This document shows positions 3,386-54,829 of a stretch of 64,000 bases of DNA, piece by piece. The DNA is from an uncultured Actinomycetota bacterium. Lineage in GTDB: Bacteria > Actinomycetota > Actinomycetes > JBEVHX01. The notes beneath the pieces are model-generated. The model made no database searches. It saw nothing but the letters and a program-made list of their open reading frames with translations, and was not told where the DNA came from. The position numbers were made by a program, and so were the translations under genes. The stretch is taken from positions 105,493-169,492 of the forward strand of contig CAWIIE010000014.1 of the NCBI GenBank assembly GCA_963836025.1. The letters run 5' to 3'. Numbering within the stretch: the stretch's first letter is position 1; each line of letters begins with the position of its first letter.

Positions 3386-3603
3386 GCGCGAGTGCGGACT
3401 TCGGGACCGGCGCGCACTGCTTACCGACCACCTCGTGGGTCGCCGATGTCGCGCCCCCCATCGCCGAGCTTGGGGGACTGCTCGACCCGCACTCGCGCTC
3501 CAGTGCTGCATCCCGCAAGTGCGCCAGATTGCCCGATCGGGAGCGGCTATTTCGAGCGCCGAGCGGCAGATATGGCACGTCCCCGACCGGCACTTCAGGG
3601 CGC

Positions 3604-3903: not shown

Positions 3904-4023
3904 ACGTCGACGGTAGCGCTCGAGTCTCCGGTGCGAGGCCGATCAACCGCATGCTCGATCGCGACGGCGAACGCCCGGTTCGGGCGGTGCGCCGATGAGC
4001 GCCGAATGCCCGATATCGCGTCC

Positions 4024-4500
4024 TCAGGTCAGCAAAGGCGGATAGAGAGGCCGCTCGAAAGGCCACGCATCGCTGGTGAGCCAGTCGGCGATCGCGCGTC
4101 TGAGGGCATCGTCGAGGGTGGCCTCGAACTCCCGTACCCACGACTGCACGTTGGCGTCATGTACGCCGTCGTCAGCCGGGTACACGTAGACGCAGCCGAT
4201 AACGTCGTCGCTCGAATTGAGAACGGTGAACGTAAAGCCTCTCCGATCGACGAAGTCTCGGGCATGCCGCTCCAGATCAGCGCGGTTCTCGTCCACGCTC
4301 ATCTCCCGAGGCCAGTTCCCATCGGGGAAGCCCGGCGAGCGTCGAATGTGGTCCATGCTCGACGTCCAGGCTGCGTAATCGCGCTCATTGTGCTTCGGGC
4401 CGAGAGGCTCAAGGCGAAAGTCGTGAGCCGTGAAGCCGGTCGGAGGGTCAAAATCGGTGGGCACGAATGAGGCGGGCTCAGACACTCTCCTCCTTTGCAA
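4024..4500 (-). CDS. GNAT family N-acetyltransferase (putative)
   Basis: 158 aa; FRLEPLGPKH..DYAAW..WP...S..EN..DL..H...F..R.GFTFTVL....VIGCVYVYP pattern seen in actinobacterial GNAT-annotated proteins. Confidence 0.6.
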   Translation of the reverse strand: MQRRRVSEPASFVPTDFDPPTGFTAHDFRLEPLGPKHNERDYAAWTSSMDHIRRSPGFPDGNWPREMSVDENRADLERHARDFVDRRGFTFTVLNSSDDVIGCVYVYPADDGVHDANVQSWVREFEATLDDALRRAIADWLTSDAWPFERPLYPPLLT

Positions 4501-4811
4501 TGGCGCGGCGGCCAGGAGAGGTCAAGCGTGCACGACGACCCGTGGAGCCGGAACATTAGTCCTCATGGTGATGCCTGGTCCGCCAGTTCGGTATCGGCAC
4601 CTATGCGCGGTTGCCCTGTTGCTCGCAAGCTGTCCTAAGCGGCGCGGCATACCGCGGGGTATGCCGCGTCCTGGGACTCGGTGAAGACGGTGAGTCGGCG
4701 TTGGAGTCGGTGTCGCGTGCTGCTCCTGCAGCATCTATGCCAACTCCGCCCTATCGCTGACGCCGCGCCGAGCCATCCCGGACCTCCGATACACGACGTC
4801 CGGTGGGTTCG

Positions 4812-4973
4812 TCACCCTGTCGGGCCCTGGCCAGGGTACGCACCCCCATGGGACCTTCCGTCGTACAGTTCCTGTTCGGCGTGGCAGCGTCTGCACTGCT
4901 TCCATGTTCGGCCGCCCGTGCGCCTCGTCGTCCATGCATGCATCCCCAACTTGCAGCGCAGGCTTTTGGTCAT
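4812..4973 (-). CDS. small Cys-rich protein, DUF1660-like (tentative)
   Basis: 53-aa internal ATG ORF MTKSLRCKLGMHAW...WKQCRRCHAEQ with a CxxxxxH...CxxC pattern; below track cutoff as a stand-alone ORF. Confidence 0.3.
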   Translation of the reverse strand: MTKSLRCKLGMHAWTTRRTGGRTWKQCRRCHAEQELYDGRSHGGAYPGQGPTG

Positions 4974-5522
4974 GACGACCTCCACTGGTGGACCGCTGTC
5001 GTGGCGTTCAGGGCGTGCCACTGGGGACGTGGGACAGCACCCAAATCGTATGCCGAATCGGTTGTACGGCGGTGAGTTCGTAGCGCTGCGCGAGGAACTC
5101 CTGCTGGGGTCCTTTCGTGATTCCAACCGGGTCAGGGTCGACGACCGCGTCATGATCCGCCGTGATCGGCGGCCACCCCTGCCTGCGTCGCGCCAGGTGA
5201 CGGACCAACCACCAGCCCGCTTGCGCGCCACTCATCCACGCGATGCTCGATCTCGGCCCATGTTGCGTCATGGTCGCTGAGGGAATCGACGTCGTGAGGA
5301 TGCCAGTGAATGCCCGCGAATGCCGGATCGTTCGCACGCGATGTATTGGCGCTTCCTGCGCGCAAGCCCTGCGCGGCCGAGCACACCCTGCACATGACCC
5401 GGGACGATCCAAAGCAATCGCGCGTCTTGGTCGCGCCGGGCTACTGTCGCTCGGGCCGGCCTACCCTCGGCCGTCAACTTCGAGCACACGGGGTGTGTCG
5501 TCTCGCTGGAAGGAGCAACGCC

Positions 5523-6137
5523 GTGCGTGAGCTGCTGATCGACTTCATCACGTCCCTCGATGGGTACGCCTCGGCCGAGGGCTGGCCGGGATGGTGGGGT
5601 CTGCAGGGCCCCGAGTACCTGCGCTGGCTCGACGAGCAGTCCGACCCGAGTGCCACGACGCTGATGGGCGCGGCGACCTACAGATTGATGTCGGGCTTCG
5701 CCGCCGGCGAGACCCCGCCGGGGACGGAGGATTTCACCAGCGATGAGCAGGACTCAATGGCCGGGCTCACGCAGGCGCCGAAGGTGGTGTTCTCGACCAC
5801 CCTGGACGAGCCGCTCACATGGGCGAACACAACTCTGGTGCGAAGCGACGCCGCCGCCGCGGTGCGAGCGATGAAGGCCGAGGACGGCGGGCCGTTGCAG
5901 ACACTCGGCAGCGTCTCCCTGTGCCGGTCGCTGCTCGCCGCCGGGCTCGTCGACCGGTTCCGGGTCGTGATGTTCCCGGTCATCACCGGTGCCACCGGCA
6001 GCGAACGCATCTACGACGGTTACCCCGACGTGGCGCTCGACATGACCTCCAGTCGCACGTTCGACGACCGGATCCAGCTGGTCGAGTACCGTCCCAGAAT
6101 CCTCGAGCACCCACCCACATCGAAGCCGGAGCGATAG
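5523..6137 (+). CDS. dihydrofolate reductase family protein (RibD C-terminal domain type)
   Basis: GTG at 5523; LIDFITSLDGYA, MGAATYRLM, LVDRFRVVMFPVITG motifs; the upstream part of the listed ORF looks non-coding. Confidence 0.8.
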   Translation: MRELLIDFITSLDGYASAEGWPGWWGLQGPEYLRWLDEQSDPSATTLMGAATYRLMSGFAAGETPPGTEDFTSDEQDSMAGLTQAPKVVFSTTLDEPLTWANTTLVRSDAAAAVRAMKAEDGGPLQTLGSVSLCRSLLAAGLVDRFRVVMFPVITGATGSERIYDGYPDVALDMTSSRTFDDRIQLVEYRPRILEHPPTSKPER

Positions 6138-6325
6138 GGCCCGGCTCGGCTGGCGTCCGCGACCGGCGCAACTCGCTCGTCGGTGGTTCACGCTGCCGAT
6201 GCATTATCCGCCGGTAGTGACGATCACGGCGCGCCGCAGCAGCGCACAACGCCGGACGCGAACGCGTCCGGGGTCGATCGGTCATCGGAGCAAACACTCG
6301 GGAGGGCTCTCGAAGGCAAGCGTCT

Positions 6326-6906
6326 TCAGGTCGAGCGGGCCCTCGAGCCCCGCGTCCACGGAGCCTCTGCTAGTTCTGCTTTCTCAATCCACCGGGCTAG
6401 AACAGAGAACGTCGCCAGATACTCCAGGGCCTCCTGCTCGGATGGCTCGGAGAGCTCACCATGCTCGTGTGCCAGAACGTTCCGGATTGCCTTGAAACAG
6501 CGTTGGCCGAAGGCGACGGCTCCATCCTGAACACTTCGGTACGTAGCGCCACCGTCGTCATCTATGAGACGTAGACGGGGCTTTCCCTCTTCGGGTTCGC
6601 TGCGGGAAAAGGCCTGAGCCACAGCGTCAGCTTCCGAGACATCTCGCCTCGACAACCTTCGTTGAAGTTGCGCGTTGACGCTGCGCGCCGATGTCGAGAC
6701 GGCCTCCGCGCAATGACCACTGGCCCAAAGTGCGCTCGCCGCTTCCAGACGACTGGGTGAAGTCCAGCGGCTTGGAGTGACGGGCCGCTCTCCCCCAAAT
6801 TCTCAGCGATCTCGTCAGAGCGAATCAACTCGGCCAGCGCCCTCTGCGCCGCTTCCCGATGCCTGTGCCACTCGAAGGTGTGCTCGCGGGGACGGTGCTG
6901 CGCCAT
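6326..6906 (-). pseudogene. TIGR02391 (Hypoth_ymh) family protein split by one frameshift (or assembly error)
   Basis: N-frame ends LHPVVW; adding one G at the GG run (plus-strand CC 6745-6746) gives LHPVVWEAASALWASGHCAEAV, then IRNVLAHE and ALEYLATFSVLARWI, the family signature. Confidence 0.6.
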
Positions 6907-8595: not shown

Positions 8596-9360
8596 GTGGA
8601 GGACGGCACGTCGACGCTTTCGCGACAGCCCCGTGCCCCCACGTTGGCGCAGTGTGAGGTGGTGGAGCTGCGCCGCTACACCTTGCGAACTGGCCAGCGT
8701 GACGAGCTCCTGGCCGTGTTCGAGGGCCATCTCATCGAGCCGCAGGAGCGCGGTGGCATGGTGGTTGGCGGGCTGTTCACCGACCGCGACGATCCGGACG
8801 CGTTTGTTTGGTTCCGGGGCTTCGTCGACATGGAGGCGCGAAGGCGGGCGCTTCACCGCTTCTACGACGGCCCGGTCTGGGCTCAGCACCGCGACTCGGC
8901 CAACGCCACCATGGTCGACAGCGACAATGTGCTGCTGCTGCGGCGCACGCAGCCCGAACACGCGCTGCCTGCCCCGACTTCACCCCGCGCGCCCAGTCAT
9001 GCCTTGCCCACCTCGACGGCCTGGGTGGTGGTGACGACATACCTGCACCACGGCGACCCGGCGCTAGAGGCGTGGCTGGCTGGACAGGTCCACGACGTTC
9101 TACAGACCGAGTTGCGGACCCTGGTGGCTATGTGGCGTACCGAGCCGGCCGACAACACCTTTCCCCGGCTGCCGGTACGCCGGGTCAACGCCGTCGTCTG
9201 GACCGCCGGTTTCGCCGACCAGCAGATCTACCTGCAGGCGCGGCACCGATTGGAGACGAGTCACCTCTGGAACCACGAAGTGAGGCCCCGCCTGCAGACG
9301 GAACTGTCCGGCTGCGAGCACCAACGCCTCCAACCCACATCACGCTCGTCACACCTGTGA
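8596..9360 (+). CDS. NIPSNAP family protein (two-domain)
   Basis: VVELRRYTLRTGQRDELLAVFE...FVWFRGFVDMEARRRALHRFYDGPVW, repeated in the second half (WRTEPADNTFPRLPVR...). Confidence 0.75.
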   Translation: MEDGTSTLSRQPRAPTLAQCEVVELRRYTLRTGQRDELLAVFEGHLIEPQERGGMVVGGLFTDRDDPDAFVWFRGFVDMEARRRALHRFYDGPVWAQHRDSANATMVDSDNVLLLRRTQPEHALPAPTSPRAPSHALPTSTAWVVVTTYLHHGDPALEAWLAGQVHDVLQTELRTLVAMWRTEPADNTFPRLPVRRVNAVVWTAGFADQQIYLQARHRLETSHLWNHEVRPRLQTELSGCEHQRLQPTSRSSHL

Positions 9361-9727
9361 CGTCCCAATTGGTCCGCCTGCGCGACCTTCCCAACTCTGC
9401 CTTCCGAGTTCCCTGCGGTCCGCCGCACCGTAACCGCGACATGTAGAACCGGTCGCGAGGGCCGCGCGCAGCATTGGCGCTTCTGCGCTCCACGACCGAT
9501 GCTTCAAGTCATGTTCGTGCGACTCGTCGTTGATCAGGCGAGAAAGCACAGGGTCGGGGCTGCGGGTGATAGAAGGCGCTTGATCGGGCGTCCGCAACTG
9601 GAGTGGCAATAAATTGGACGACTCCGCGTGATGCCGTCGGAGGGCGGACCTGACCGTGCCGTGGCACATCCAAGCGCGCCCGACCTCCTGTGTTGGTACC
9701 GGCGGTGTGGTGAACCACGATGTCGGT

Positions 9728-10666
9728 ATGCGGCCGCCGCTTACCGTCGAGGTTCCGCCCGGCTTGCTCGCGATGTTCAATCCTGACCCAAGTTGGGTGG
9801 CGTGGCTGGACGACCTGCCTCGAGTCGTCCGTGAGCTGTTGCACGACTGGGATCTGTCGGTCGACGGCCGGGCTCGTCACGGCGCGTCAGCGATCGTCGT
9901 CCCGGTGCGCGACGTGGACGGTGGCAGGCACGTCCTCAAGGTCGGCTGGCCGCACGAAGAAGCTGAGCATGAGCATCTGGCCCTGCAGGCACTGCACGGC
10001 AACGGCACGGTCCTGCTCCACCGGGCCGACCCGCGCCGAGGGGCGCTGCTTCTCGAGCGGCTGCAGGCTGATGTCTCGGCGGAGTCGTTGCCGGACCGCG
10101 AAGCGTGCGAACTCGTCGCCCGGCTGTACGCGCGACTGCACGTCCCTTCGCTGCCGCAGCTGCGTTCGCTGGCGAGCTTCGTTCAGCGATGGACGGAGGG
10201 TCTCGCGGCGCTGCCGCCGAGCGCGCCGGTCCCGCCCCGCCTGGTCGCGCACGCGATCACGTTGGGCCGTTCGTTCGTCGACGATGACGCGACCGTGGGG
10301 ACGATGATCCATGGAGACCTGCACGGCGGGAACGTCTTGGCTGCGAACCGCGAACCCTGGTTGGTCATCGACCCGAAGCCGGTATCCGGTGACCCGCACT
10401 ACGAAGTCGCGCCGATGCTGTGGAATCGTTGGGACGAGGTCACCGCAACAGGGGACGTCCGATCGGCCATCCGTCGACGGTTCCACACGATCGTCGACAT
10501 CGCCGGGCTGGAGGAGGAACGAGCCCGGGACTGGGTCATTGTGCGCCAGATGCACAACGTGCTCTGGGCGATCCAAGACGCCGAACGCGCAGGACAGCGC
10601 TTATCGGCCGAGGACCGCGAATGGATCACCCGGAGCGTTGCGATCGCGAAGGCCGTCCAGGGCTGA
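9728..10666 (+). CDS. aminoglycoside phosphotransferase, APH(6)/streptomycin-kinase-like
   Basis: ATG 9728; WLDDLPRVVRELLHDWDL, VLKVGWPHEEAEHE, IHGDLHGGNVL (catalytic loop), VIDPKPVSGDPHYEVAPML. Confidence 0.8.
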   Translation: MRPPLTVEVPPGLLAMFNPDPSWVAWLDDLPRVVRELLHDWDLSVDGRARHGASAIVVPVRDVDGGRHVLKVGWPHEEAEHEHLALQALHGNGTVLLHRADPRRGALLLERLQADVSAESLPDREACELVARLYARLHVPSLPQLRSLASFVQRWTEGLAALPPSAPVPPRLVAHAITLGRSFVDDDATVGTMIHGDLHGGNVLAANREPWLVIDPKPVSGDPHYEVAPMLWNRWDEVTATGDVRSAIRRRFHTIVDIAGLEEERARDWVIVRQMHNVLWAIQDAERAGQRLSAEDREWITRSVAIAKAVQG

Positions 10667-44366: not shown

Positions 44367-45350
44367 GTGGAGGTCCGATTCCTGAGCCAGTCCGCGATAG
44401 CCGTGCATCAGGTCGCTGAACTGCCCGCGTTGCTCGAGCGCGACGACGGCTTCGTCTGGGTGGACATTCCCACTTTCGACGACGAGCAGGCACGCGTCCT
44501 CGCCCATCGGTTTGGCTTCCATGACATGGCGCTTCGGGCATGTCAGGAGCGCAATCACTTGCCGTCGACGCACGCATACCAGGAGTACATCTTCACCATC
44601 CTGCATGCTCCGCTGCCGGGTGCCGCCGGGCACGTGCACCTGCTGGAGATCGACCAGTTCGTCGGTCGTCGCTACCTGGTGACGGTGCATGGCCCGCTCA
44701 ACCCTGACGTCGCGATCGAGCGCGCCCTTGAGGAGACCCTGGCGGTGCTCAGCCGGATCGAGCGCGGGCGCTTCCGTCCGTCATCCCCCGCCGAGCTGTC
44801 CTACGCCATCGTGACGGCCGTGGCCCGGCGCCAACGCGGCCTGGTCACCACGGTCGCGGAAGAGGTTGCCGCGCTCGAGCGACGGGTCATGGGCGACGAC
44901 CTCCGCAACCCCGAGCAACTGCTCGAGGAAATGTTCCTGGTGCGCCACGAACTGCTGACCGTGCGCACCATGGCGGCCCAAAGTCACGACATCTTTGCTC
45001 GGCTGGCCACCTTGGGGCGCTTCGTCCCCGTCGAGGACAAGCCGATGCTGCACGACCTGGCCGATCAGTTCGACCGGATCCGCAGTCTCAGCGACGGCGA
45101 GAAGGAGTTCCTCTACGGCGTCATCGACCTGTACCAAACCCGAGTCGCCACCAAGATGACCGTGGCCGTGGAACGGCTCGCCGTGCTCGCCGCGGTCACG
45201 TTGCCCATCACCGCGCTGGCGTCGATCTTCGGCATGAACGTGATCGTCCACGACCAAACCCAGCCGGTCCAACTCGTGTTGATCCTCGTGCTGATGATCG
45301 CGATCAGCGGCCTGCTGCTGCGCTGGACCAAACGACAAGGCTGGTGGTAG
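44367..45350 (+). CDS. corA: CorA family Mg2+/Co2+ transporter
   Basis: GTG start; cytoplasmic domain plus two C-terminal TMs with ASIFGMNV (GMN motif). Confidence 0.85.
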   Translation: MEVRFLSQSAIAVHQVAELPALLERDDGFVWVDIPTFDDEQARVLAHRFGFHDMALRACQERNHLPSTHAYQEYIFTILHAPLPGAAGHVHLLEIDQFVGRRYLVTVHGPLNPDVAIERALEETLAVLSRIERGRFRPSSPAELSYAIVTAVARRQRGLVTTVAEEVAALERRVMGDDLRNPEQLLEEMFLVRHELLTVRTMAAQSHDIFARLATLGRFVPVEDKPMLHDLADQFDRIRSLSDGEKEFLYGVIDLYQTRVATKMTVAVERLAVLAAVTLPITALASIFGMNVIVHDQTQPVQLVLILVLMIAISGLLLRWTKRQGWW

Positions 45351-45719: not shown

Positions 45720-47603
45720 CTACTGGTCGGGTGTCCCTTTCAGGGATCCGGACACCAACGCGCTGGAGAGCTTCTGCCCGCCTGGCACCTGACCGACGCC
45801 GCCGGCCGTTTCTACGTTCGGTCGGCCCGACGGGGCCAGGACTGGATCGGCGTCAGGGGTCACGATCGGGATCGAGAGCTTCATGCGGGTGTGCGCGGCA
45901 TCGCGGGTCACGTCGAGTGTTCCTTCGAGGGCTGTGACCCGGTCGGAGACGGAAGCGTGCTCACCCACGACGCCCTCAACTCTGACGACGATGATCAGCT
46001 CGTTGTCCCGGGTGGCAGCGTGGATGGTCGTCGGCCCGGTCTCGCTCGCGCGCGCAAGCAGGAGGTATGCGGTGGACTCGATGACGTCGTCGAAACGCTG
46101 GCGCGGCATGGCCTCGACGTGCAGGCGCCTGCTCTCGCCGAGCGCACCGAGCGCGGCGGCCAGTCCCGAGTCCTTGAGGAGCACCGGGTAGATGCCCCGA
46201 GCTAGCTGCCGCAGATCCGAGATGGTCTGCTGCAACAGAGCCTCCGCCTGGTCGAGCTGCCGACCGGCGTCGGTGGTACGTGAGCGCAGAAGCCGCAAGG
46301 CGAGCGACAGCCCGACCAGTCGCTGCTGCGCCCCGTCGTGCAGGTCACGTTCGATGCGGCGACGCTCCTCGTCACCGGCTGCGACGATACGCGCACCGGA
46401 CGTGCGGAGGTCGTCCATCTCGGCCAGCGCTTCGGCGTGCAGGCGTTCGTTCTCCAGCGCGAGGTGCAGTGCCGATTCGATGTTCGCCGCCGCCTCTCGG
46501 CCGTCGAGCAGGCCTGGCCGATGAACGAGGACGGCGACCTCGGTCCCGTCGTAACGCAGCCGCGTCATGACTCGGCCATCCGCCGGTGGGAGCTGAACGG
46601 CGTTGGCCAGCGCGTCCACGTGGCGGCGATCACCGTCGATCGGGTAGGCGACGAGCAGGTCGGGATCACCCAGTCGGGTGGCGATCGCCTGCCGAAGTTG
46701 GCCGGCAGGGGCAGTGCCACCCAGCTCGACGACCAGCCGGGTCAGGGCGCGGTGAGCGACTCGGCCACGCACGACGTCGATGATCACCGCCGCACCGATC
46801 AGCGTCAGGAGGGCCGCCTGGGCGAGCCACAGCCAAGCATCGCGCTCCTCGCCACCGAGGAAACCCCGGTCGAGGCTTGCCACGTAGGAGACGAGAACCA
46901 CGCTCAGATAGCCGAGCGAACCGGCGGAGACCAGAAGCACCGACTGTCGACGCGCAGGGCTCGCCTGGAGGAACCGCCACGTGATCGCTGACAGTGCGGC
47001 CGTGAGCCACACGACGCCGAGACGGACCCCAGTCAAATTAAGCTGGTCATAGAGATCCGGTCGATCGGCAATCAGCAACAGATTGTCGGCGCATCCGACA
47101 CATCCCTGGCCTGCCGGGTCGAAGACCGCGGCTGACGCGGCGCCGAGCACGACAATCGTGATTGCGTAGCCGCAGGCAACGACGACGCGGCTCGTCCACG
47201 CCCCGAGCCGACCCGACGGGTATGCGAGTCCGAGATGGACCACCACTGCCGGGCACGCCGCATACAGCACGAGCCCAGTCGTGAACAGCAGGCTTGAGGA
47301 GATCGCGGGGTTGTCGAACTCGGCAAGCAGCCACATGATTGCGACCGCGTACACCACGAGGGCGGTCGCATACCGCCCCCGGACGTACGACACGACCAGG
47401 GCCGCGACCAGGAGCGACCAGCCGGCGGCCAGCAAGGCGGTCGTCCCCCAGGGGGCTGTTGCGGTGAAGGAGAAGCCGGCCGCTGTTCGGGCGATCGCGA
47501 ATGCGGCCAGGCTCAGCGCCAGGCCTGCACCGAGCAGAGCGAGCCGGATCGGCATCGATGACTTCTCCCAACCCCCACGCGACACCGTCGCGTCCACCAG
47601 CAT
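45720..47603 (-). CDS. membrane histidine kinase HK-A: canonical HisKA_3 H-box, degenerate ATP-binding domain
   Basis: ERRRIERDLHDGAQQRL (His codon 46338-46340); CA region ESTAYLLLARASETG / VEGVVG / SDRVTALEGTL lacks N-box Asn, G1 and G2 glycines; start may be ATG 47555. Confidence 0.8.
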   Translation of the reverse strand: MLVDATVSRGGWEKSSMPIRLALLGAGLALSLAAFAIARTAAGFSFTATAPWGTTALLAAGWSLLVAALVVSYVRGRYATALVVYAVAIMWLLAEFDNPAISSSLLFTTGLVLYAACPAVVVHLGLAYPSGRLGAWTSRVVVACGYAITIVVLGAASAAVFDPAGQGCVGCADNLLLIADRPDLYDQLNLTGVRLGVVWLTAALSAITWRFLQASPARRQSVLLVSAGSLGYLSVVLVSYVASLDRGFLGGEERDAWLWLAQAALLTLIGAAVIIDVVRGRVAHRALTRLVVELGGTAPAGQLRQAIATRLGDPDLLVAYPIDGDRRHVDALANAVQLPPADGRVMTRLRYDGTEVAVLVHRPGLLDGREAAANIESALHLALENERLHAEALAEMDDLRTSGARIVAAGDEERRRIERDLHDGAQQRLVGLSLALRLLRSRTTDAGRQLDQAEALLQQTISDLRQLARGIYPVLLKDSGLAAALGALGESRRLHVEAMPRQRFDDVIESTAYLLLARASETGPTTIHAATRDNELIIVVRVEGVVGEHASVSDRVTALEGTLDVTRDAAHTRMKLSIPIVTPDADPVLAPSGRPNVETAGGVGQVPGGQKLSSALVSGSLKGTPDQ

Positions 47604-47714
47604 TGTGGCGGGAGAGGGCTATCCCCGATGTACTTACGCCAGAGGGGGGTTTGGCCCCGATGTCGCGACCCGGCAGCGTCCCTAGCGTCGGTGGCATCGA
47701 CAAGGGGGTTTCCG

Positions 47715-49550
47715 ATGAAGAGAACCAAGCAACAATCCTGGATCGCCGCCGTGGGCCTACTGGGTCTGCTCGTCGGCACCGCTGCTTGTGCAGCCCCGGA
47801 TCGCGCCGGAGGGAACGCCGACGCCGACGCGACCGTGCTGACCTTCGCGCAGCCAAACGAAGGTGCGCCCCAGGCCCAGCTGGTTGCCTGGGCCGAGGAG
47901 GTCGACCGGCTCTCGGGGGGATCGGTCCGGATCGAGTTCAAGAACGGCTGGCGCATCGGTGAACCAGATTTCGAGTCGGGGACCATCGCGGATGTGCAGG
48001 AGGGCGATGTCGACATGGCGTGGGTCGGTGCGCGTGCATTCGACCGGATCGGCGTGACCAGTTTCCAAGCCCTGCTGGCGCCGATGCTCGTCGACAGCCA
48101 TGACATTCAGGCGAAGGTGTTCGAGGAAGGCATCCCACAGGAGATGCTCGCCGGCCTCGGCCAGATCGACGTTATGGGGGTGGGGGTCCTACCGGGACCG
48201 ATGCGGAAGGTGCTGGGGGTTGAGAGGGCGTTCACGACGCCCGGCGACTTCTCCGGCGCCGTCGTCGGGATGCAGGACTCAGCGGTTGCTGAGCGATCTT
48301 TCGCGGTACTGGGTGCCTCGACGAAGAGCCTGCCCAGCGGTGCAAGCATCAATGGTGTCGACGCCTACGAGCAGCAGCTTTCGTCCATCTGGGGCAACCA
48401 CTACGAGCTGTCCGCCGGCTTCGTGACGTCGAACCTCAACCCCTGGCCGCGGCCGCTTGTCATGTTCATCGGTAGGACGGCCTACGACGGTCTGTCTGAG
48501 AGTCAGCAGCGGGCCCTCACCTCGGCAACCGACCAGGCGATGCTGACAGCACTCGATGCCGCGCGGGCCGAAGACTCCGAGTTCGTTGCCGATCTCTGCC
48601 ACGCCGGCTTGGAGTTCACTGCGGCGTCACTTGACCAGCTTGGCAGTCTGGAACTGGCCTGGCAGCAGGTCTACGACGAGCTCGGCACAGACTCAGAGAC
48701 CGGCAAGTGGATCGACCGCATCAAGGTGCTCAAGGAAACCCTGGGTGCCGGGCCGGACACAGCCGAGTGCCCTGAGGATGACGCCGCGACGCCCGTGGCC
48801 GGGTCGCAGGATCTGCCCAACGGTACCTACGAGATGACCCTGACGCCCGACGACATCCGAGCCGGCTGCAAGCCTGGCGATCTTGGCGCTGAGAACCTCG
48901 AGCCGCTGACCGAGTTCGAACAGACCCTGTTCGTGAACACCGTCAAAGACGGCACGATCACGCAGTTCTCTTACTACGGCGGCCGCGACGGCGAGCGCGA
49001 CTTTGGCTGGGGCGGGAGCTTCCGGACCTTCCGGGACACTTTCGAGCTCACCGACGACGAGGGTGGGGTGCTTCCTGCGACTTGGTCCTTTGACGGAAAG
49101 CAGCTCGTGCTCAGCGACATGCGGACCGAGTGGTGTGACAACAAGACGGTCTGGACGACACACCCGTGGGTGCTGGTCACCGTGACCCCGGCTGCGTCCA
49201 GTGGTGCGTCCAGTGCATCCAGTCTCGAGGGCACCTGGACGACCACGGTGACCGAGGAAGACTGGGCCACGGCGGGGTTGAGCAACCTCAGCGACCAGGC
49301 CGGCGTGTTCACCCTGACCTTCGCGAACGGCCTGGTCACGCTCACCCAGCCTGACGGCGTGATGGGCTACCGGGCCAAGTACAAGGCGTTCCGGGATCGA
49401 CTCGAGACGAGCGGACATGAGGATGTGCTCACCGCGACCTGGTCGGTGACCGGCGACACGCTGAGCATGAGCGGGATCAACAGCGGTGGCTGCACCGATT
49501 GCGAGCCATACGCCGTGGTCTGGGGTACGCACCCCTGGACCAGGCAGTAG
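47715..49550 (+). CDS. DctP-like (TRAP-type) solute-binding lipoprotein with a duplicated C-terminal extension
   Basis: Lipobox LVGTAAC; DctP-like pattern (IEFKNGW..GE..FESGTIADVQEGDVDMAWVG...); two related C-terminal modules of about 115 aa ending THPWVLV / THPWTRQ; no DctQM nearby. Confidence 0.75.
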   Translation: MKRTKQQSWIAAVGLLGLLVGTAACAAPDRAGGNADADATVLTFAQPNEGAPQAQLVAWAEEVDRLSGGSVRIEFKNGWRIGEPDFESGTIADVQEGDVDMAWVGARAFDRIGVTSFQALLAPMLVDSHDIQAKVFEEGIPQEMLAGLGQIDVMGVGVLPGPMRKVLGVERAFTTPGDFSGAVVGMQDSAVAERSFAVLGASTKSLPSGASINGVDAYEQQLSSIWGNHYELSAGFVTSNLNPWPRPLVMFIGRTAYDGLSESQQRALTSATDQAMLTALDAARAEDSEFVADLCHAGLEFTAASLDQLGSLELAWQQVYDELGTDSETGKWIDRIKVLKETLGAGPDTAECPEDDAATPVAGSQDLPNGTYEMTLTPDDIRAGCKPGDLGAENLEPLTEFEQTLFVNTVKDGTITQFSYYGGRDGERDFGWGGSFRTFRDTFELTDDEGGVLPATWSFDGKQLVLSDMRTEWCDNKTVWTTHPWVLVTVTPAASSGASSASSLEGTWTTTVTEEDWATAGLSNLSDQAGVFTLTFANGLVTLTQPDGVMGYRAKYKAFRDRLETSGHEDVLTATWSVTGDTLSMSGINSGGCTDCEPYAVVWGTHPWTRQ

Positions 49551-49557
49551 CAGCGAG

Positions 49558-49977
49558 ATGAATCCGCGCGTCGGGGACAGTCCTGACGCGCGGACCCATG
49601 TCTGCTGTCAGCATGGCGCGGTGGCCCCCACGTTGTTGATCGCCGACGACCACGCGGGCTTCCGGTCCTTCGCGCGTGCGCTGCTGGAATCCGAGGGCTA
49701 CGACGTCATCGGCGAAGCCGAAGACGGGGCGGCCACGGTCGCCGCTGCTCGGCGACTCGATCCGGAGATCGTGCTGCTTGACATCGCGTTGCCCGACATG
49801 GACGGCTTCGCTGTCTGCGAGCAGATCACCGCCGGCCGCCGGGACCGACCCATCGTCGTGCTCACATCGAGCCGAGATGCCGAGTCGTACCGCGACAAGA
49901 TGCTGACCAGCCGCGCGCGCGGGTTCATCCCGAAACAGGACCTCTCCGGCGCAACCCTCGCCGCGTTGACAGGCTGA
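49558..49977 (+). CDS. stand-alone response-regulator receiver domain
   Basis: LLIADDH, VLLDIALPDMDG (phospho-Asp), VVLTSS, FIPKQD (Lys); no output domain; start could be GTG 49621. Confidence 0.75.
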   Translation: MNPRVGDSPDARTHVCCQHGAVAPTLLIADDHAGFRSFARALLESEGYDVIGEAEDGAATVAAARRLDPEIVLLDIALPDMDGFAVCEQITAGRRDRPIVVLTSSRDAESYRDKMLTSRARGFIPKQDLSGATLAALTG

Positions 49978-49981
49978 GGCG

Positions 49982-51481
49982 ATGCCCGACTGGGTGATCC
50001 GGGCCAGCGACCCCCTTGTCGGCGTGACGCTGCTCGCGTGCGGGGCGGTGGCGTGGAGCCGCCGGCCGCGCAGCTGGGTTGGCCTGCTCATGGTCGCGGC
50101 CGCGGTCTGCTGGTTCCTCGGCAGCCTGCTCGCCGTCGCGGTGTTCCTGCACCGGGGTCCGATGGTTCACCTGCACATCTCCTACCCGACCGGTCGAGTA
50201 CGGCGGCCCGTCGCCATCGCGACGGTGATCATTGCCTATGTCGCCGCGCTGTTCGAGGCGGTTGCAGGCAACGCCTGGATCACGCTCGGACTGGCCCTGC
50301 TGGTCGCGGTCGCCGCGCTCGATGTGTACGTGCGAACGTCGGGGCGAGCCCGCAAGGCCGGCGGTCCCGCGCTCGCCGCGGCGCTGACGTTCGCCGGAGT
50401 GCTCGCGTTGAGTAGCGCGAACGTGATCCTGGACTGGGGCGCCGACCGGGCCGTCCTGTTCACCTACAACCTGGCCGTCTGCGCCGTTGCGGTTGCCCTG
50501 ACAACGGACCTGTTGTGGGGGCGGTGGTCGGAGGCCACGGTCGCCGACCTCGTGACACAACTCGGAGGCCGCGGCGACACCAGTGGCCTGCGCGGCGAGC
50601 TTCAGCGAGCGCTCGGCGACCCAACACTCACGCTCGGCTACTGGTTGCCCGAGCAGCGCCGATACGTCGACGACGACGGACTCCCGCTCGATCTGCGGGA
50701 CGACCCGCGAGCTGTCACCGCCATAGAGGAATCCGGTCAACCCCTCGCCGTTCTGGTCCACGACCCGTCGGTCCTCGACGACAACAAACTGGTCGACGGT
50801 GTCACGGCAGCCCTGCGGCTCGCTGTCGTCAACTCGGTGATGCGGGCGCAGGCACAGGCGAGAGTCAGCGAGCTCGCCGCCTCCAGGCGACGCGTCGTCG
50901 AAGCTGCCGACGACCAGCGTCGCGCGCTTTCGGCCGAGCTTGCTCGTGGTCCCCAACGGCAACTGACCGAAATCGCCAGCCTGATCCGCAGCGCGGAGGT
51001 GGGGATCGGCGAGAGCTGCCGACCCGATCTGGCGATAGCCCTATCTGAGGTGCGCGGGGCGCAGCACGAGCTTCACGAGCTCGTCCAGGGCATCCGGCCG
51101 TCAGCGCTCGAATCGGGTGGCCTCGCCGCAGCCCTGCCCGCCCTCCTAACCCGAGCACCCATCGCTGTTGACCTGCAGGTCACCCAACGGCGGATGCCTC
51201 CCGCAATCGAGGCGGCGATCTACTTCGTCTGTGCCGAGGGCCTGGCCAACATCGCCAAGCACGCCGACGCCCAGTGCGCCTCGGTCGATGTTTGGCTGGC
51301 GGACGGCGTGGTGGTGATATCTGTGCAAGACGACGGGATAGGTGGCGCTGAACCAGCCGGCTCGGGACTCAGGGGCCTCGCCGATCGAGTGGCGGCGCTC
51401 GGTGGCCACCTGTCGGTCGGTGACGAGGCCGGCGGGGGCACCCGTCTGGTGGCCAGGATCCCTCTGGCGGTTGGGTCGTGA
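49982..51481 (+). CDS. membrane histidine-kinase paralogue HK-B: H-box His replaced by Ala, intact ATP-binding domain
   Basis: DQRRALSAELARGPQRQL (GCT 50942-50944 at the His position); AIYFVCAEGLANIAKHA (N), VQDDGIGG (G1), GSGLRGLADRVAALGG (G2). Confidence 0.8.
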   Translation: MPDWVIRASDPLVGVTLLACGAVAWSRRPRSWVGLLMVAAAVCWFLGSLLAVAVFLHRGPMVHLHISYPTGRVRRPVAIATVIIAYVAALFEAVAGNAWITLGLALLVAVAALDVYVRTSGRARKAGGPALAAALTFAGVLALSSANVILDWGADRAVLFTYNLAVCAVAVALTTDLLWGRWSEATVADLVTQLGGRGDTSGLRGELQRALGDPTLTLGYWLPEQRRYVDDDGLPLDLRDDPRAVTAIEESGQPLAVLVHDPSVLDDNKLVDGVTAALRLAVVNSVMRAQAQARVSELAASRRRVVEAADDQRRALSAELARGPQRQLTEIASLIRSAEVGIGESCRPDLAIALSEVRGAQHELHELVQGIRPSALESGGLAAALPALLTRAPIAVDLQVTQRRMPPAIEAAIYFVCAEGLANIAKHADAQCASVDVWLADGVVVISVQDDGIGGAEPAGSGLRGLADRVAALGGHLSVGDEAGGGTRLVARIPLAVGS

Positions 51482-52134
51482 GGGTCGTGATCGCTGACGA
51501 CTCGGTCCTGCTCCGGGATGGACTTGCGCGCCTGCTGTCCGAGTCGGGCTGCACAGTAGTCGGAACGGCTGGAGACGCCGATGGGCTACTGCGCGAGGTC
51601 GCCCTGACCCGCCCGGACGCCGTGATCGTCGATATCAGGATGCCGCCGACCCACACCGATGAAGGGATCGCGGCGGCGCGCCAGCTCAGGAGCGCTCGAC
51701 CACAACTCGGCGTGCTCGTCCTCTCCCAATACCTGGAGTCCGAGTACGCCATGCGGCTGATCACCGATGCACCCGAACATGTCGGCTACCTACTCAAGGA
51801 GCGGGTCTCGAACATCGCAGTCATTGTTGATGCTCTGCAGCGAGTGGTCGAAGGCGAATGCGTCGTCGATCCGACCATCGTCTCGACACTGCTCCGCCGC
51901 CCCCGAGACCCCGGACCGCTCGACGGCCTCACGCCTCGCGAGCGTGAGGTGCTGGCGCTGATCGCTGAGGGCCGATCCAACGGGGCGATCGCCAACAGGC
52001 TGGAGATGAGCCCGAAGACGCTGGAAGCGCACGTGCGCCAGATCTTGCAGAAACTGGGCATCCACGAGTCACCCGACGACCACCGCAGGGTGCTCGCCGT
52101 CTTGCGGTACCTCCGAGCCGACGCTCACGGTTGA
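51478..52134 (+). CDS. NarL/LuxR-type response regulator
   Basis: GTG overlaps the HK-B stop (GTGA); VVIADDS, VIVDIRMPP, LTPREREVLALIAEGRSNGAIANRLEMSPKTLEAHVRQI. Confidence 0.9.
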   Translation: MRVVIADDSVLLRDGLARLLSESGCTVVGTAGDADGLLREVALTRPDAVIVDIRMPPTHTDEGIAAARQLRSARPQLGVLVLSQYLESEYAMRLITDAPEHVGYLLKERVSNIAVIVDALQRVVEGECVVDPTIVSTLLRRPRDPGPLDGLTPREREVLALIAEGRSNGAIANRLEMSPKTLEAHVRQILQKLGIHESPDDHRRVLAVLRYLRADAHG

Positions 52135-52897: not shown

Positions 52898-53245
52898 TTA
52901 CAGCGACATGTACGGGGAGAAGAGCTGGACCGGGCCGTCGGCAGAGAACCGAGCCCTGAGTTCCGGACTGGGGTCGCCGAGGAGTTCGCCGTAGACCGTG
53001 CCCGTGGCGATGATCGGTTCCATCAGGTGCGCGAGGTGCTGGCCGTGTTCAAGGAGAGCCTGCGAGTCGCGGTACCGCTCGACGACAATCGCCTCGGATT
53101 CGTCGGCGTTGAAGTATGTCTCGTAGGCCAGCGTGCCCGTGTCCTGTGCTTTGACGATCTCCATGCAGAGGGCAGAGAGTCGCTTGAACTCCTCGACCTG
53201 GCCTTCGTGGAACTTGAATCGCGCGATACCGGTCAGTTCGCTCAT
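52898..53245 (-). CDS. ABM (antibiotic biosynthesis monooxygenase-like) domain protein
   Basis: ATG 53245 preceded by a GGAGGG RBS; ARFKFHEGQVEEFKRL...AYETYFNADESEAIVVERYRDSQALLEH. Confidence 0.6.
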   Translation of the reverse strand: MSELTGIARFKFHEGQVEEFKRLSALCMEIVKAQDTGTLAYETYFNADESEAIVVERYRDSQALLEHGQHLAHLMEPIIATGTVYGELLGDPSPELRARFSADGPVQLFSPYMSL

Positions 53246-53425
53246 ATGCTTTCCCTCCACCGTTGTCAATCGGCCACATCTGACCGCAACAACAAGCCTG
53301 CATGTTCCGGGCACACGGCATCAACCACAGGTGGACAACATTCGTCGCAAGCCATGCCCAGGCCACGTCCTAGAGCCTGCAGTAAGACCCGATGCCGAAT
53401 GCCGGCTCTCGCGCTGCTTGGGGGT

Positions 53426-54829
53426 CTGTCAGAGGAACGGTGTAACCGGCGTTCATCTACAAGGTCTCCGCCGCTGGCATCCGGTCGGCGAAGGTGATGG
53501 CGAATGCGTTCAGGGCCGGCTTCCAGCGAGTGATCCATCGTGCCTGCCCCAACCCCTTGGGGTCCAGGGATCGAGTGACCAGGTAGAGCGTTTTCATCGC
53601 CGCCTGCTCGGTGGGGAAGTGTCCCTTGGCGTTGACCGCTCTGCGGTAGCGGGCATTCAACGACTCGATCGCGTTCGTGCTGGACAGCACGCGGCGGATC
53701 TCGATGTCGTAGTCGAGGAACGGGATGAACTGCTCCCAGGCGGCGCGCCACAGTCTCGGGATCGCCGGGTAGCGTCCGCCCCACTTCTCCTCGAGATCCT
53801 CGAACGCCGCCCAGGCTGCCTTCGCATGCGGTGCGGTGTAGATCGCCCGCAGGTCCTTGGCCAGCTGTTCCCAGTACCGCTTGGAGGCGTAGCGGAAGCT
53901 GCCGCGGATCAAGTGGATGATGCAGGTCTGGACCGTCGCGAGTGGGAAGACCGTGTTCACCGAGTCGGGTAGCCCGCTCAGCCCGTCGCAGACGACGAAG
54001 AACACGTCCCGCACGCCGCGGTTGCGCAGGTCGGTGAGCACCGCGAGCCAAAACTTCGACGATTCACCGCCGGTATTCGAGCCAGCCCACAGCCCGAGCA
54101 CGTCCCGGTGGCCGCCCAGGTCGACGCCGATCGCGGCGTAGAACAGCTGGTTGCCGACCTGCCCGTCACGGACCTTGACCCGGATCGCGTCGATGAACAC
54201 CGCGGCGTAGACCGGCTGCAGCGGTCGCGACGCCCAGGTCTGCATGTCTTCCACCACCCGGTCGGTGATCCGGGACACGGTGTCCTTCGACACGCTGGCG
54301 CCGTAGACCTCGGCGAAGTGCGCGGAGATCTCCCCGGTGGTCAACCCGCGGGCGTACAACGACAGCACCACCGCGTCCACATCGGACAGCCGGCGCTGCC
54401 GCTTCGCGACGATCACCGGCGCGAAGGTGCCGTCCCGGTCCCGGGGCACCTCGACCTCGACCGGGCCGGCGTTGTCGGTCAACACCGTCTTCGACCGGGC
54501 GCCGTTGCGGGAGTTGCCGCCGTTGCGGCCCTCGACCGCGTGCTTGTCGTAGCCGACGTGCTCGGTCATCTCCTCCTCCAACGCGGATTCGATGACCTGC
54601 TTGGTGATCGACTTCAACAGCCCGTCCGGGCCGGTCAACTGATCACCCCTTGCGCGAGCGGCCTTCACCAACTCGCGGACCGCGGCCTGCTCCACCTCAT
54701 GTGGCGTGACCGCCTTCGTCGCTGCCTTCTCAAGCGAGCCCACGCCCGCCAGTGTCTCGGTCATCCAGGACCGGCCTTCCCGCCGAGCCACCTCGGCGTG
54801 TCGGGCCAGTTACACCGTTCGTCGGACAG
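53426..54829 (-). mobile_element. IS256-family insertion sequence (coordinates are the IR cores)
   Basis: 24-nt inverted repeats CTGTCAGAGGAACGGTGTAACCGG (53426-53449) and reverse complement of 54806-54829, 3 mismatches; no clear target duplication found. Confidence 0.75.
53457..54764 (-). CDS. IS256 family (mutator-type) transposase
   Basis: EEEMTEHVGY, NGARSKTVLT, VFIDAIRVKVRDG, FFVVCDGLSGLPDSV, VQTCIIHLIR, STNAIESLN. Confidence 0.9.
   Translation of the reverse strand: MTETLAGVGSLEKAATKAVTPHEVEQAAVRELVKAARARGDQLTGPDGLLKSITKQVIESALEEEMTEHVGYDKHAVEGRNGGNSRNGARSKTVLTDNAGPVEVEVPRDRDGTFAPVIVAKRQRRLSDVDAVVLSLYARGLTTGEISAHFAEVYGASVSKDTVSRITDRVVEDMQTWASRPLQPVYAAVFIDAIRVKVRDGQVGNQLFYAAIGVDLGGHRDVLGLWAGSNTGGESSKFWLAVLTDLRNRGVRDVFFVVCDGLSGLPDSVNTVFPLATVQTCIIHLIRGSFRYASKRYWEQLAKDLRAIYTAPHAKAAWAAFEDLEEKWGGRYPAIPRLWRAAWEQFIPFLDYDIEIRRVLSSTNAIESLNARYRRAVNAKGHFPTEQAAMKTLYLVTRSLDPKGLGQARWITRWKPALNAFAITFADRMPAAETL

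Follow-up and report, generated by a model that had tools for sequence, protein, structure and literature searches.

The stretch of DNA analysed here (64,000 nucleotides, referred to as the window) carries a locus of five genes, in which two genes for kinase-like membrane proteins, HK-A and HK-B, bracket genes for a solute-binding lipoprotein and a stand-alone receiver and are followed by a response regulator gene. The features of the locus are the following:

45720-47603, minus strand: HK-A open reading frame, 627 aa
45720-47555, minus strand: likely coding span of HK-A, with Met17 at 47555 as the likely start, as in the database version
46761-47555, minus strand: HK-A membrane domain (hydropathy scan, model helices and invariant alignment columns)
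46131-46373, minus strand: HK-A DHp domain with H box ERDLHDGAQQRL and DxxxQ phosphatase motif
46338-46340, minus strand: HK-A phospho-acceptor His codon CAC, in ERRRIERDLHDGAQQRL (His422 of the 627-aa open reading frame, His406 of the 611-aa form)
45864-46130, minus strand: HK-A pseudo-catalytic domain (column counts, model secondary structure, no HATPase_c match)
47556-47714, no strand: intergenic region separating HK-A from the divergently oriented DctP operon, presumed to hold both promoters
47715-49550, plus strand: DctP-family (TRAP-type) solute-binding lipoprotein (Pfam DctP, E = 4e-19)
49558-49977, plus strand: stand-alone receiver (Pfam Response_reg, E = 8e-22)
49982-51481, plus strand: HK-B, membrane subunit, 499 aa (Pfam HATPase_c match only)
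50942-50944, plus strand: HK-B codon at the His position, GCT (Ala321), in QRRALSAELARGPQRQL
51158-51466, plus strand: HK-B catalytic (CA) domain (N box, G1, G2 and GGT motif)
51478-52134, plus strand: NarL/FixJ-type response regulator, receiver plus GerE helix-turn-helix (Pfam Response_reg and GerE)

Both kinase reading frames lie where an earlier, sequence-only reading had placed them, and the two codons it had assigned to the His position were found as described. The last 47 residues of HK-A (45720-45863) occur in the window alone and are predicted to be disordered. Short repeats were the sole features found in the intergenic region. Position 47715, at the lipoprotein signal peptide, is the most likely start of the DctP gene. 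The stand-alone receiver has two possible starts (ATG at 49558 or GTG at 49621), and its translation shows the DD, D, T and K residues. The stop codon of HK-B is overlapped by the start of the NarL-type regulator gene.

HK-A and HK-B are related to each other over 371 aa (BLASTP, 29% identity, E = 7e-23), a part that reaches from the final membrane helix as far as the C-terminus. They had been described as full-length paralogues; the homology holds for this shared part, but the collinearity does not extend to the whole of either protein, with about eight membrane helices in HK-A (hydropathy scan and model) and about six in HK-B. The distance tree is weak, with bootstrap support of 59% for the HK-A clade and 32% for the HK-B clade, and so does not establish that the pair arose only once. 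The reciprocal kinase defects proposed from the sequence were confirmed by HMM scoring in the window and, with a single HisKA_3 match among the HK-B relatives, in the 30 relatives scored for each protein.

The sole Pfam match of HK-A is HisKA_3 (E = 8e-11), and among its relatives HisKA_3 was matched in 30/30 and HATPase_c in 0/30. The alignment columns of H406, D407 and Q411 are invariant in all 116 relatives, and none of the same 116 has the N-box Asn, the G1 motif DxGxG or the G2 motif GxGxxG. Conservation in HK-A peaks in DHp alpha-1 (mean column identity 0.91, 15/32 columns invariant); the pseudo-catalytic domain scores 0.63. This domain still retains R487, E493, Y497, D538, R539, G545 and P563 as invariant residues among relatives, which argues that the remnant is being maintained and is not decaying. 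In the AlphaFold2 model (mean pLDDT 82) it keeps the alpha/beta fold at a pLDDT of 85-90, with a 6-residue loop at the site of the ATP lid, where the HK-B model has a lid loop of 13 residues. The CA domain of HK-A is a structural remnant devoid of the motifs that ATP binding requires. The nearest Foldseek match is the DHp-CA region of DesK, and structures of ChpT (4fmt) and RetS are also among the matches. An invariant CxxC...N motif (residues 152, 155 and 158, P0001 numbering) lies in one extracytoplasmic loop of HK-A.

HK-B presents the mirror image. HATPase_c is its sole Pfam match (E = 5e-7), and its relatives match HATPase_c in 30/30 and HisKA_3 in 1/30 cases. The residues of the N box (E419, N423, K426), of G1 (D450, G452, G454, G455), of G2 (G460 and G462 to G465) and of the GGT motif at 485-487 (with G486 and T487 among the invariant positions) are invariant or nearly so in 117/117 relatives, and 22 of the 103 columns of the CA domain are invariant. 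The His, on the other hand, is replaced in 114 of these 117 relatives by at least eight different residues distributed by clade (A 49, D 33, R 23, T 4, S 2, and E, K and N one each; H in 3), and the variety of the replacements points to several independent losses. The alignment of the 117 relatives showed no alternative invariant His in the DHp domain. DHp alpha-1, so conserved in HK-A, is the least conserved region of HK-B (0.60); this would fit the loss of regulator docking and is unlike a very tight, specific interface. The mean pLDDT of the HK-B model is 82.6.

The two kinases, the DctP-type lipoprotein, the lone receiver and the NarL-type regulator occur together in 15/15 loci with enough flanking sequence, a small survey reached by homology to the window. 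These paired loci come from lineages as distant as Streptomyces, Kribbella, Microlunatus, Acidimicrobiales, Thermoleophilia and Gaiellaceae. The co-occurrence of the five-gene block, which the sequence-only reading had named as a check, is complete in these 15. Two gene orders were found, with unrelated flanking genes; the lone receiver lies directly upstream of HK-B in both, and the NarL-type regulator is present in all loci (orthologues 63-80% identical). At least 17 further contig-length matches connect the hit lists of HK-A and HK-B. Related loci with one kinase (receiver, kinase, NarL-type regulator) also have the receiver upstream of the kinase, which is canonical, both Pfam domains being confirmed for L006; in tblastn searches these one-kinase loci gave no DctP gene.

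The HK-A of distant paired loci already shows the degeneration, and the His of HK-B is present in two (L005, L019) and lost in two others (L007, L056). Taken with the family-wide counts, this indicates that the defects differ in age, the loss in HK-A being universal and that of the HK-B His having apparently occurred repeatedly, with few members keeping it. Such a pattern is what would be expected if the HK-B His became dispensable once HK-A relied on the ATPase of HK-B. Where HK-B keeps its His (3/117, and L005 and L019), it may still autophosphorylate in the ordinary way or take part in a relay.

The lipoprotein is also matched by NCBIfam TRAP_S1 and by DctP subunits in the PDB. Every orthologue carries the lipobox Cys, and the C-terminal beta-rich domain is duplicated (internal repeat, E = 1e-9). 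Its gene is found in all paired loci, and the neighbourhoods of these loci contain no DctQ or DctM gene near it. The protein is likely to be an extracytoplasmic ligand sensor, and its ligand is probably an organic acid.

Our analysis makes it probable that the sensor histidine kinase of this locus is split by nature into two paralogous membrane proteins, accompanied by three partners, and that HK-B would phosphorylate the His of HK-A in trans. We infer this by elimination and from the conservation patterns. The sequence-only reading had suggested the same division, and each of its proposed checks that computation could address spoke for it. HK-B would be the catalytic subunit, its intact CA domain binding ATP and its own phosphorylation target being absent, and HK-A the substrate and output subunit, offering the sole phospho-acceptor His and the HisKA_3 phosphatase motif. 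The two would assemble via their DHp helices, in the simplest case as an A:B heterodimer and possibly as a higher hetero-oligomer, and the HK-B CA domain would phosphorylate the HK-A His. Phosphorylated HK-A would then pass the phosphoryl group to the NarL-type regulator as the transcriptional output and also to the lone receiver, which may be a sink or a modulator; HK-A may dephosphorylate the receivers as well. The lipoprotein most likely signals via HK-A, the sole subunit with real outside loops. A kinase pair of this kind, recurring across many actinobacterial genomes, is most likely functional only together, and CheA3/CheA4 (PMC3591291) and FasB/FasC (PMC12675982) show that labour divided in this way is workable in the cell.

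The same split chemistry might also proceed outside a DHp heterodimer, if HK-A and HK-B formed homodimers that met transiently or within a larger membrane complex and the HK-B CA domain reached across dimers. CheA3/CheA4 operate in this manner, the poor conservation of HK-B DHp alpha-1 is compatible with it, and the DHp hairpins, predicted to be complete in both proteins, could homodimerise. However, the short linker that tethers the CA domain in DHp-class kinases normally confines its reach to a His within its own four-helix bundle, and FasB and FasC, the closest DHp-class case, show hetero- but not homo-interaction in two-hybrid assays. We regard separate homodimers as possible, if rather unlikely; as for stoichiometry as such, the present evidence favours neither arrangement.

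A relay appears doubtful. Here HK-A would serve, in the manner of Spo0B or ChpT, as a His phosphotransferase bound to the membrane. The lone receiver would be charged by an unlinked kinase or by a His-keeping HK-B and would hand the phosphoryl group to the HK-A His, from which it would go to the NarL-type regulator; His-less HK-B would be an ATP-binding regulator and not the kinase. HK-A is indeed built like these proteins (a DHp His with a dead CA domain, and ChpT among its structural matches), the second gene order couples the receiver with HK-B and the NarL-type regulator with HK-A, and HK-B retains its His in L005 and L019. Yet the many independent replacements of that His mean that the first step could by no means be general, and the neighbourhoods show no conserved third kinase. 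Moreover, the strict invariance of the HK-B ATP-binding residues favours catalysis over mere binding, and one-kinase loci have the lone receiver too, where no relay is needed.

Still less plausible, and in our view very improbable, is a role of HK-A as phosphatase only, keeping both receivers unphosphorylated; acetyl phosphate or some non-cognate kinase would charge them, and HK-B would have an unrelated ATP-dependent role. The DxxxQ motif of HK-A is invariant and, according to a review, HisKA_3 phosphatase activity does not need the His; but the HK-A His would then be free to vary, and it is the HK-B His that does so, and the strict linkage of the two genes in 15/15 loci would be left unexplained. 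Finally, sequencing or assembly artefacts and decaying pseudogenes have next to no chance of accounting for the defects: HK-B and DctP are frameshifted in related long-read MAG contigs (L085, L086, L089) and frameshifts had been noted elsewhere in the window, but both kinase reading frames are intact, as the sequence-only reading had stated, neither alternative frame of the C-terminal region of HK-A contains canonical N or G boxes, the same patterns of substitution recur in over 100 independent relatives per protein, among them the finished genomes of Streptomyces (CP108354) and Microlunatus phosphovorus (AP012204), and the degenerate domains retain invariant residues and a confidently predicted fold.

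The split kinase proposed here has its family of origin in DesK, NarX and LiaS, with which it has the DHp sequence signature of H box and DxxxQ, a NarL-type partner and the CA fold in common; unlike HK-A and HK-B, these canonical HisKA_3 kinases are homodimers with both activities on each subunit. The best NCBIfam matches (MctS, UhpB, LiaS, NarX) are partial, and all NCBIfam matches lie far under the cut-offs, at 54-66 bits against 400-700. Mixed dimers of His-less and ATP-binding-dead mutants of EnvZ, NtrB and CheA reportedly regain kinase activity by trans-phosphorylation, in work attributed to Yang and Inouye (in 1991) and to later studies. The chemistry would be the same as that suggested for HK-A and HK-B, but EnvZ complementation was engineered with laboratory mutants of one homodimeric kinase, whereas the present defects have been fixed by evolution in two different genes, and an actinobacterial family conserves them. 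ChpT and Spo0B resemble HK-A in combining a DHp-type bundle and its phosphorylatable His with a CA-like domain unable to bind ATP. In contrast, both are soluble proteins that take the phosphoryl group from a receiver Asp, and no ATPase paralogue is paired with them; HK-A spans the membrane with eight helices, combines a HisKA_3 H box with a phosphatase motif and is strictly linked to a partner whose CA domain is an orphan. The pseudo-histidine kinases DivL and RetS have likewise lost catalytic function and still act in two-component signalling, partly via DHp hetero-association (RetS-GacS heterodimer). They regulate a complete kinase (CckA and GacS, respectively), whereas neither HK-A nor HK-B is complete; the pair would therefore reconstitute activity and not modulate it.

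As in LuxP/LuxQ, TorT/TorS and XylFII/LytS, a solute-binding protein gene lies among signalling and not transporter genes, and its product is presumed to report a ligand to a membrane kinase; in the parts of the review consulted (PMC8050422), DctP-family proteins figure as transporter components only and not as sensor-kinase partners. The receptor kinases known for this type of sensing have a sizeable periplasmic domain, whereas HK-A has short loops only and HK-B almost none.

The closest precedents for the division of labour are two natural pairs. In CheA3/CheA4 of Rhodobacter sphaeroides (PMC3591291), as here, the phospho-acceptor and the ATP-binding kinase domain reside on separate proteins; neither works alone, both together phosphorylate a response regulator, and the His-carrying partner is also a phosphatase. 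FasB/FasC of group A Streptococcus (PMC12675982, 2025) are adjacent kinase-like membrane proteins with the two-hybrid pattern given above; the FasB kinase domain is proposed to phosphorylate H246 of FasC, whose own kinase domain is dispensable, and a single regulator acts downstream. This pair belongs to the Firmicutes and has neither a solute-binding lipoprotein nor a second receiver; its division of labour comes from genetics and is not described as reciprocal loss of catalytic motifs, and FasB may retain an acceptor His. The sequence-only reading had considered the arrangement undescribed, which stands for the family, of which we found no description in the literature, and for the architecture, but not for the split or heterodimeric principle, in which both pairs precede it. 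CheA3 and CheA4 are cytoplasmic CheA-class proteins (P1 to P5 domains), assembled on a chemoreceptor cluster and each simply missing whole domains; HK-A and HK-B, by contrast, are full-length membrane paralogues of the DHp class (HisKA_3) that keep both folds, with one inactivated in each.

Our analysis supports, as far as sequence goes, the proposal of the sequence-only reading that HK-A and HK-B, two histidine kinase homologues of the window with reciprocal defects, constitute a split, obligately heteromeric kinase. The locus is probably a naturally split, heterodimeric sensor kinase of the HisKA_3 type, encoded within a conserved five-gene module. The five genes occupy 45.7-52.1 kb of the window:

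45720-47603, minus strand: HK-A; probable start at Met17 (47555), matching the database copy P0001
intergenic gap of ~160 bp between HK-A and the four plus-strand genes beyond it
probable start 47715, plus strand: DctP-family gene; this start yields a signal peptide with a lipobox Cys
end 49977, plus strand: stand-alone receiver
49982-51481, plus strand: HK-B
51478-52134, plus strand: NarL-type regulator; its start overlaps the HK-B stop

The NarL-type regulator shows the features of the NarL/FixJ family, i.e. an acidic pocket, a phospho-Asp and a Lys visible in translation plus a GerE helix-turn-helix (Pfam Response_reg, E = 1e-15; GerE, E = 6e-16), and the active site of the lone receiver is likewise complete. 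A repeat search of the divergent intergenic region between HK-A and the DctP gene returned only short, unconvincing repeats, and no operator is proposed. The surroundings include a CorA gene (44367-45350) on the HK-A side. On the other side, an intact Mutator/IS256-family transposase gene (53457-54791, minus strand; Pfam Transposase_mut, E = 3.6e-131) follows the NarL-type regulator after ~1.3 kb, with a small ABM-family monooxygenase gene (52898-53314) in between.

Both kinase reading frames and their paralogy were confirmed (29% identity over 371 residues, E = 7e-23), the match starting at the last membrane helix and running on to the C-terminus. Common to both is an HLxxxYPxGR motif, placed on the cytoplasmic side by hydropathy and the positive-inside rule. 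Scoring against Pfam bears out the reciprocal loss of domains: DHp, the helical domain carrying the H box, is detected in HK-A only (HisKA_3, E = 8e-11) and the ATP-binding catalytic domain (CA; HATPase_c) in HK-B only. The codons on which the sequence-only reading had rested are correct, namely CAC (His) at 46338-46340 on the minus strand in HK-A and GCT (Ala321) at 50942-50944 at the corresponding position of HK-B. NCBIfam holds no model for either protein; the best partial match, MctS, falls far below its cut-off.

The defects also proved to be conserved in relatives. Across 116 aligned near-full-length relatives of HK-A the H box ERDLHDGAQQRL is near-invariant, and every one (116/116) has the acceptor His, the Asp next to it and a Gln four residues further along, Asp and Gln representing the DxxxQ phosphatase motif of HisKA_3 kinases. 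Of a canonical HisKA_3-type kinase (PF07730 plus PF02518) HK-A has thereby kept the acceptor His but not the N, G1 and G2 boxes of the ATP-binding CA domain: neither the N-box Asn nor G1 (DxGxG) nor G2 (GxGxxG) occurs at the CA position in any of the 116. Seven residues of this pseudo-CA are still invariant (R487, E493, Y497, D538, R539, G545 and P563). HisKA_3 was found in all 30 re-scanned relatives and HATPase_c in none, and HisKA_3 is the sole annotation in all of the best 120 relatives out of thousands. A search with the 91-residue pseudo-CA alone retrieved 56 clusters at 50% identity, and in nearly all of them the matching stretch is the C-terminal end of a 550-600-residue protein or lies in a fragment. 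Two large proteins, P0241 (2846 aa) and P0263 (1498 aa), contain 24 and 18 separate stretches matching the same query; either both are built of repeats of a similar unit or the matches are artefacts of composition. The HK-A of the window carries in addition a C-terminal tail of ~45-47 residues (45720-45863, minus strand) that is seen in no other family member; a pLDDT below 50 predicts disorder for this tail, which may stem from read-through past a lost stop codon.

Hydropathy, the positive-inside rule and alignment columns assign to HK-A an extracytoplasmic loop of ~25 residues with an invariant CxxC...N motif. Cys152, Cys155 and Asn158 (GCxxCxxN) are invariant in this sole sizeable outside loop (window ~47076-47120, minus strand; residues 146-160 of the 611-aa form), and a loop of the GCxxCPxN type is also found in some relatives from loci with a single kinase (L006, L017). 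For the CxxC loop, a role as disulfide, redox or docking site is conceivable. In HK-B the same hydropathy and positive-inside criteria leave hardly any loop on the extracytoplasmic side.

HK-B has retained what HK-A has lost. Its ATP-binding residues E419, N423, K426, D450, G452, G454, G455, G460, G462 to G465, G486 and T487 are invariant (117/117 relatives), so that N, G1 and G2 boxes are all in place, and the acceptor His of the H box is missing from 114 of the 117. The position is held by Ala in 49, Asp in 33, Arg in 23, Thr in four, His in three, Ser in two, and Glu, Lys and Asn in one each. These replacements track clades and the three His-keeping proteins sit among Arg-type sequences, which indicates that the His was lost several times independently. 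No other invariant His is present in the DHp region of the family alignment. Among 30 re-scanned relatives HATPase_c was detected in 30 and HisKA_3 in one, and HATPase_c is the sole annotation in nearly all of the best 120 out of thousands; the DHp domain of HK-B is too diverged even for recognition as HisKA_3. According to a 2025 review, the acceptor His is absent in only 0.3% of recognised HisKA_3 domains. One HK-B relative at 63% identity, P0161, comes from a 1.9-kb contig labelled as a Gammaproteobacteria MAG, a label more likely due to mis-binning than to a genuine family member outside Actinomycetota.

Per-domain conservation was used in place of dN/dS, since orthologues are ~50% identical and synonymous sites would be saturated. 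The two profiles are mirror images. In HK-A the DHp helix alpha-1 is the best-conserved part (mean column identity 0.91; 15/32 columns invariant) and the pseudo-CA the least conserved (0.63; 6/89), whereas in HK-B helix alpha-1 is the least conserved part (0.60; 5/32) and the CA domain has 22 invariant columns out of 103.

The five-gene block had been taken for a module from the window alone, and related genomes bear this out: both kinase types and the DctP gene co-occur in all 15 loci with enough flanking sequence (15/15). Acceptor site and ATP-binding domain thus reside, at sequence level, on separate co-encoded polypeptides in the window and family-wide, as in a split kinase. The gene order of the window recurs in Kribbella (L001), Streptomyces NBC_01352 (L002), Microlunatus phosphovorus NM-1 (L003; AP012204, ~75.7-93.3 kb), Streptomyces NPDC001536 (L004), Streptomyces lutosisoli (L088), Streptomyces NPDC056464 (L090) and the closest relative, L086; the genes flanking these loci are unrelated. 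A second order (receiver, HK-B, DctP on the opposite strand, HK-A, NarL) is found in L084 (an Acidimicrobiales MAG), L085 and L089, and also in the more distant loci L005, L019 and L007. The distant locus L056 reads HK-B, DctP (opposite strand), HK-A, NarL, and tblastn found no lone receiver there. L087 is uninformative, its sequence ending 163 bp from HK-A. Two homology searches gave at least 17 further HK-A/HK-B match pairs on sequence records of equal size.

Several of these loci show peculiarities of their own. The HK-B or DctP orthologue is broken up among several frames on three contigs from long-read MAGs (L085, 3800-6800; L086, 3100-4700; L089, 2000-3600), which most likely reflects homopolymer errors in the assemblies rather than decaying genes; gene callers render the broken genes as fragments without a Pfam domain. 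In L089 DctP occurs as two paralogues in tandem (637 and 470 residues; 3434-6804), and straight after the NarL-type regulator there is an additional guanylate-cyclase/receiver gene (9354-10640) which hints at a second output. In the loci of the two closest HK-A relatives (L086, 8720-15143; L087, 1885-8890) HK-A is succeeded in both cases by genes for COXG, a xanthine-dehydrogenase-type molybdenum hydroxylase and PucR, a block that is a possible regulatory target; the CorA gene takes its place in the window.

The DctP-family fold of the lipoprotein was confirmed (Pfam PF03480, E = 4e-19; DctP subunits in the PDB, E = 1e-7; NCBIfam TRAP_S1, 62 bits against a cut-off of 50), and its gene is present in every paired locus examined, i.e. 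every locus with both kinase types. The protein is not filed here as a transporter subunit, because no DctQ or DctM gene adjoins it: none is listed in the gene tables of nine gene-called loci, and none is evident in the window around the locus. Of 11 orthologues, 8 retain a putative carboxylate-binding Arg, a hint that the ligand is an organic acid. As only HK-A has real outside loops, HK-A is the more likely signalling partner of the lipoprotein. Behind the TRAP fold (window 48800-49550) lies a beta-rich domain of ~130 residues without Pfam match that ends in ...THPW; it is single in most orthologues and doubled in the window and in L086 (5071-6861; internal repeat, E = 1e-9).

Clues to the origin of the pair come from a genome scan with the HK-A alignment, based on back-translated patterns (ERDLHDGA and similar) which are common to many HisKA_3 kinases and permit no unbiased co-occurrence count. 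Among the loci listed, one is a new true orthologue (L004) and the other 79 are distant relatives; the scan yielded the ancestral one-kinase form and four distant paired loci. Most of the distant relatives (~30-35% identity) have the order receiver, kinase, NarL with one kinase only. Full CA boxes are present in all five such kinases examined (L006, L008, L012, L017, L035) and the H box in all four that are shown from the H box onward; in the L006 kinase both Pfam domains are detected. By tblastn, which also missed the DctP gene of L007, no DctP gene was found in one-kinase loci. Degeneration of the HK-A-type protein has already taken place in the distant paired loci, where the HK-B-type protein has His at the acceptor position in L005 and L019 (RLHDGA...), Arg in L007 and Leu in L056. 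The most economical scenario is a duplication of a canonical receiver-kinase-NarL system, loss of ATP binding in one copy, which rendered the His of the other dispensable, and then repeated loss of that His. The lone receiver goes back to the one-kinase ancestor. Neighbour-joining of the cytoplasmic regions agrees with HK-A and HK-B forming clades of their own, at weak support values (59% and 32%) that allow no firm claim of a single origin.

AlphaFold2 models of both proteins are confident (mean pLDDT 82 for HK-A, 82.6 for HK-B) and share a small alpha/beta linker domain and a long DHp hairpin, preceded by ~8 membrane helices in HK-A and ~6 in HK-B. HK-B ends in a full CA domain with a 13-residue lid loop, HK-A in a compact alpha/beta domain with a 6-residue loop where the lid would be. 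The closest Foldseek match of HK-A is DesK, a kinase of the HisKA_3 type, in its DHp-CA portion; RetS and ChpT are matched as well. The latter similarity (4fmt, E = 4e-3) brings up a relay scenario, in which HK-A would be a His phosphotransferase of the ChpT/Spo0B type fed by a receiver Asp; model and motifs agree with that architecture, a DHp-like bundle with a His next to a nucleotide-free CA-like domain, but no His-bearing kinase is conserved in the locus, which is indirect evidence against such a relay. A frameshift explanation of the defects, already discounted in the sequence-only reading, and a pseudogene explanation are both rejected by the lack of hidden kinase motifs in the other frames of the HK-A C-terminal region and by the family-wide pattern.

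Phosphorylation of HK-A by HK-B in trans is what the conservation pattern points to. To our knowledge, phosphate enters a two-component pathway solely via an ATP-binding CA domain acting on a His, and the only competent CA domain of the module belongs to HK-B, the only conserved acceptor His to HK-A. The invariance of these two sites, the relaxation of their counterparts, the repeated loss of the HK-B His and the strict linkage of both genes make it fairly probable, in our judgement, that the HK-B CA domain phosphorylates the HK-A His inside a hetero-oligomer. HK-A would then be the surface that docks, phosphorylates and dephosphorylates both receivers, because its helix alpha-1 and DxxxQ motif are hyper-conserved; the lone receiver may act as a phosphate sink or feedback modulator, and the DctP-type lipoprotein is the probable ligand sensor. 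All steps beyond the sequence features themselves are ones that we infer. We also lean, if only slightly, towards the wider view of an ancient class of obligately heteromeric sensor kinases that is widespread in Actinomycetota, in which a canonical kinase was duplicated, one copy irreversibly lost ATP binding and the His of the other, now dispensable, was lost independently many times, leaving a unit of five proteins (solute-binding lipoprotein, His carrier, ATPase and two receivers).

Histidine kinases are usually regarded as symmetric homodimers in which each subunit does everything, and much of the knowledge on trans- versus cis-phosphorylation and on functional asymmetry derives from artificial mixed dimers. 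If the above holds true, an ATP-only subunit and a subunit that accepts and passes on the phosphate would represent this asymmetry in fixed genetic form, and a natural dimer would allow trans-phosphorylation, phosphatase control and docking of regulators to be attributed to one defined subunit each, within a five-protein unit that is not understandable as a two-component pair. The pair would offer a clean experimental system with culturable hosts (Streptomyces, Kribbella, Microlunatus phosphovorus). Annotation is affected as well: databases name each of the two a "sensor histidine kinase", and a genome census would tally the pair as two separate sensors or as "incomplete" kinases. That one partner repeatedly lost its His once the other no longer bound ATP would be a compact case of duplicates growing mutually dependent, and a DctP-type lipoprotein without transporter genes nearby suggests a sensor input role for the DctP family.

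Among known systems, ChpT and Spo0B, both kinase-derived, carry a His alongside a dead CA domain, and DivL and RetS are pseudo-kinases that regulate complete kinases. Laboratory mixed dimers of EnvZ, combining His-less and ATP-dead mutants, reportedly regain activity. In the literature searched we found no description of the actinobacterial HK-A/HK-B family, no reciprocal degeneration of two full-length membrane paralogues and no DctP-type partner of a kinase; the passages on solute-binding sensors in one review (PMC8050422) mention none either. CheA3/CheA4 (PMC3591291) is a split kinase following the same logic as HK-A/HK-B, but belongs to the CheA class. FasB and FasC of group A Streptococcus (PMC12675982, 2025) are two hetero-associating kinase-like proteins of the DHp class; the FasB kinase domain is proposed to phosphorylate the FasC His, and the FasC kinase domain is dispensable. 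The sequence-only reading, which had not recognised the arrangement as described, therefore stands for the actinobacterial family, its architecture and the DctP link, which appear to be new, but not for the split-kinase principle, which is already known from CheA3/CheA4 and FasB/FasC.
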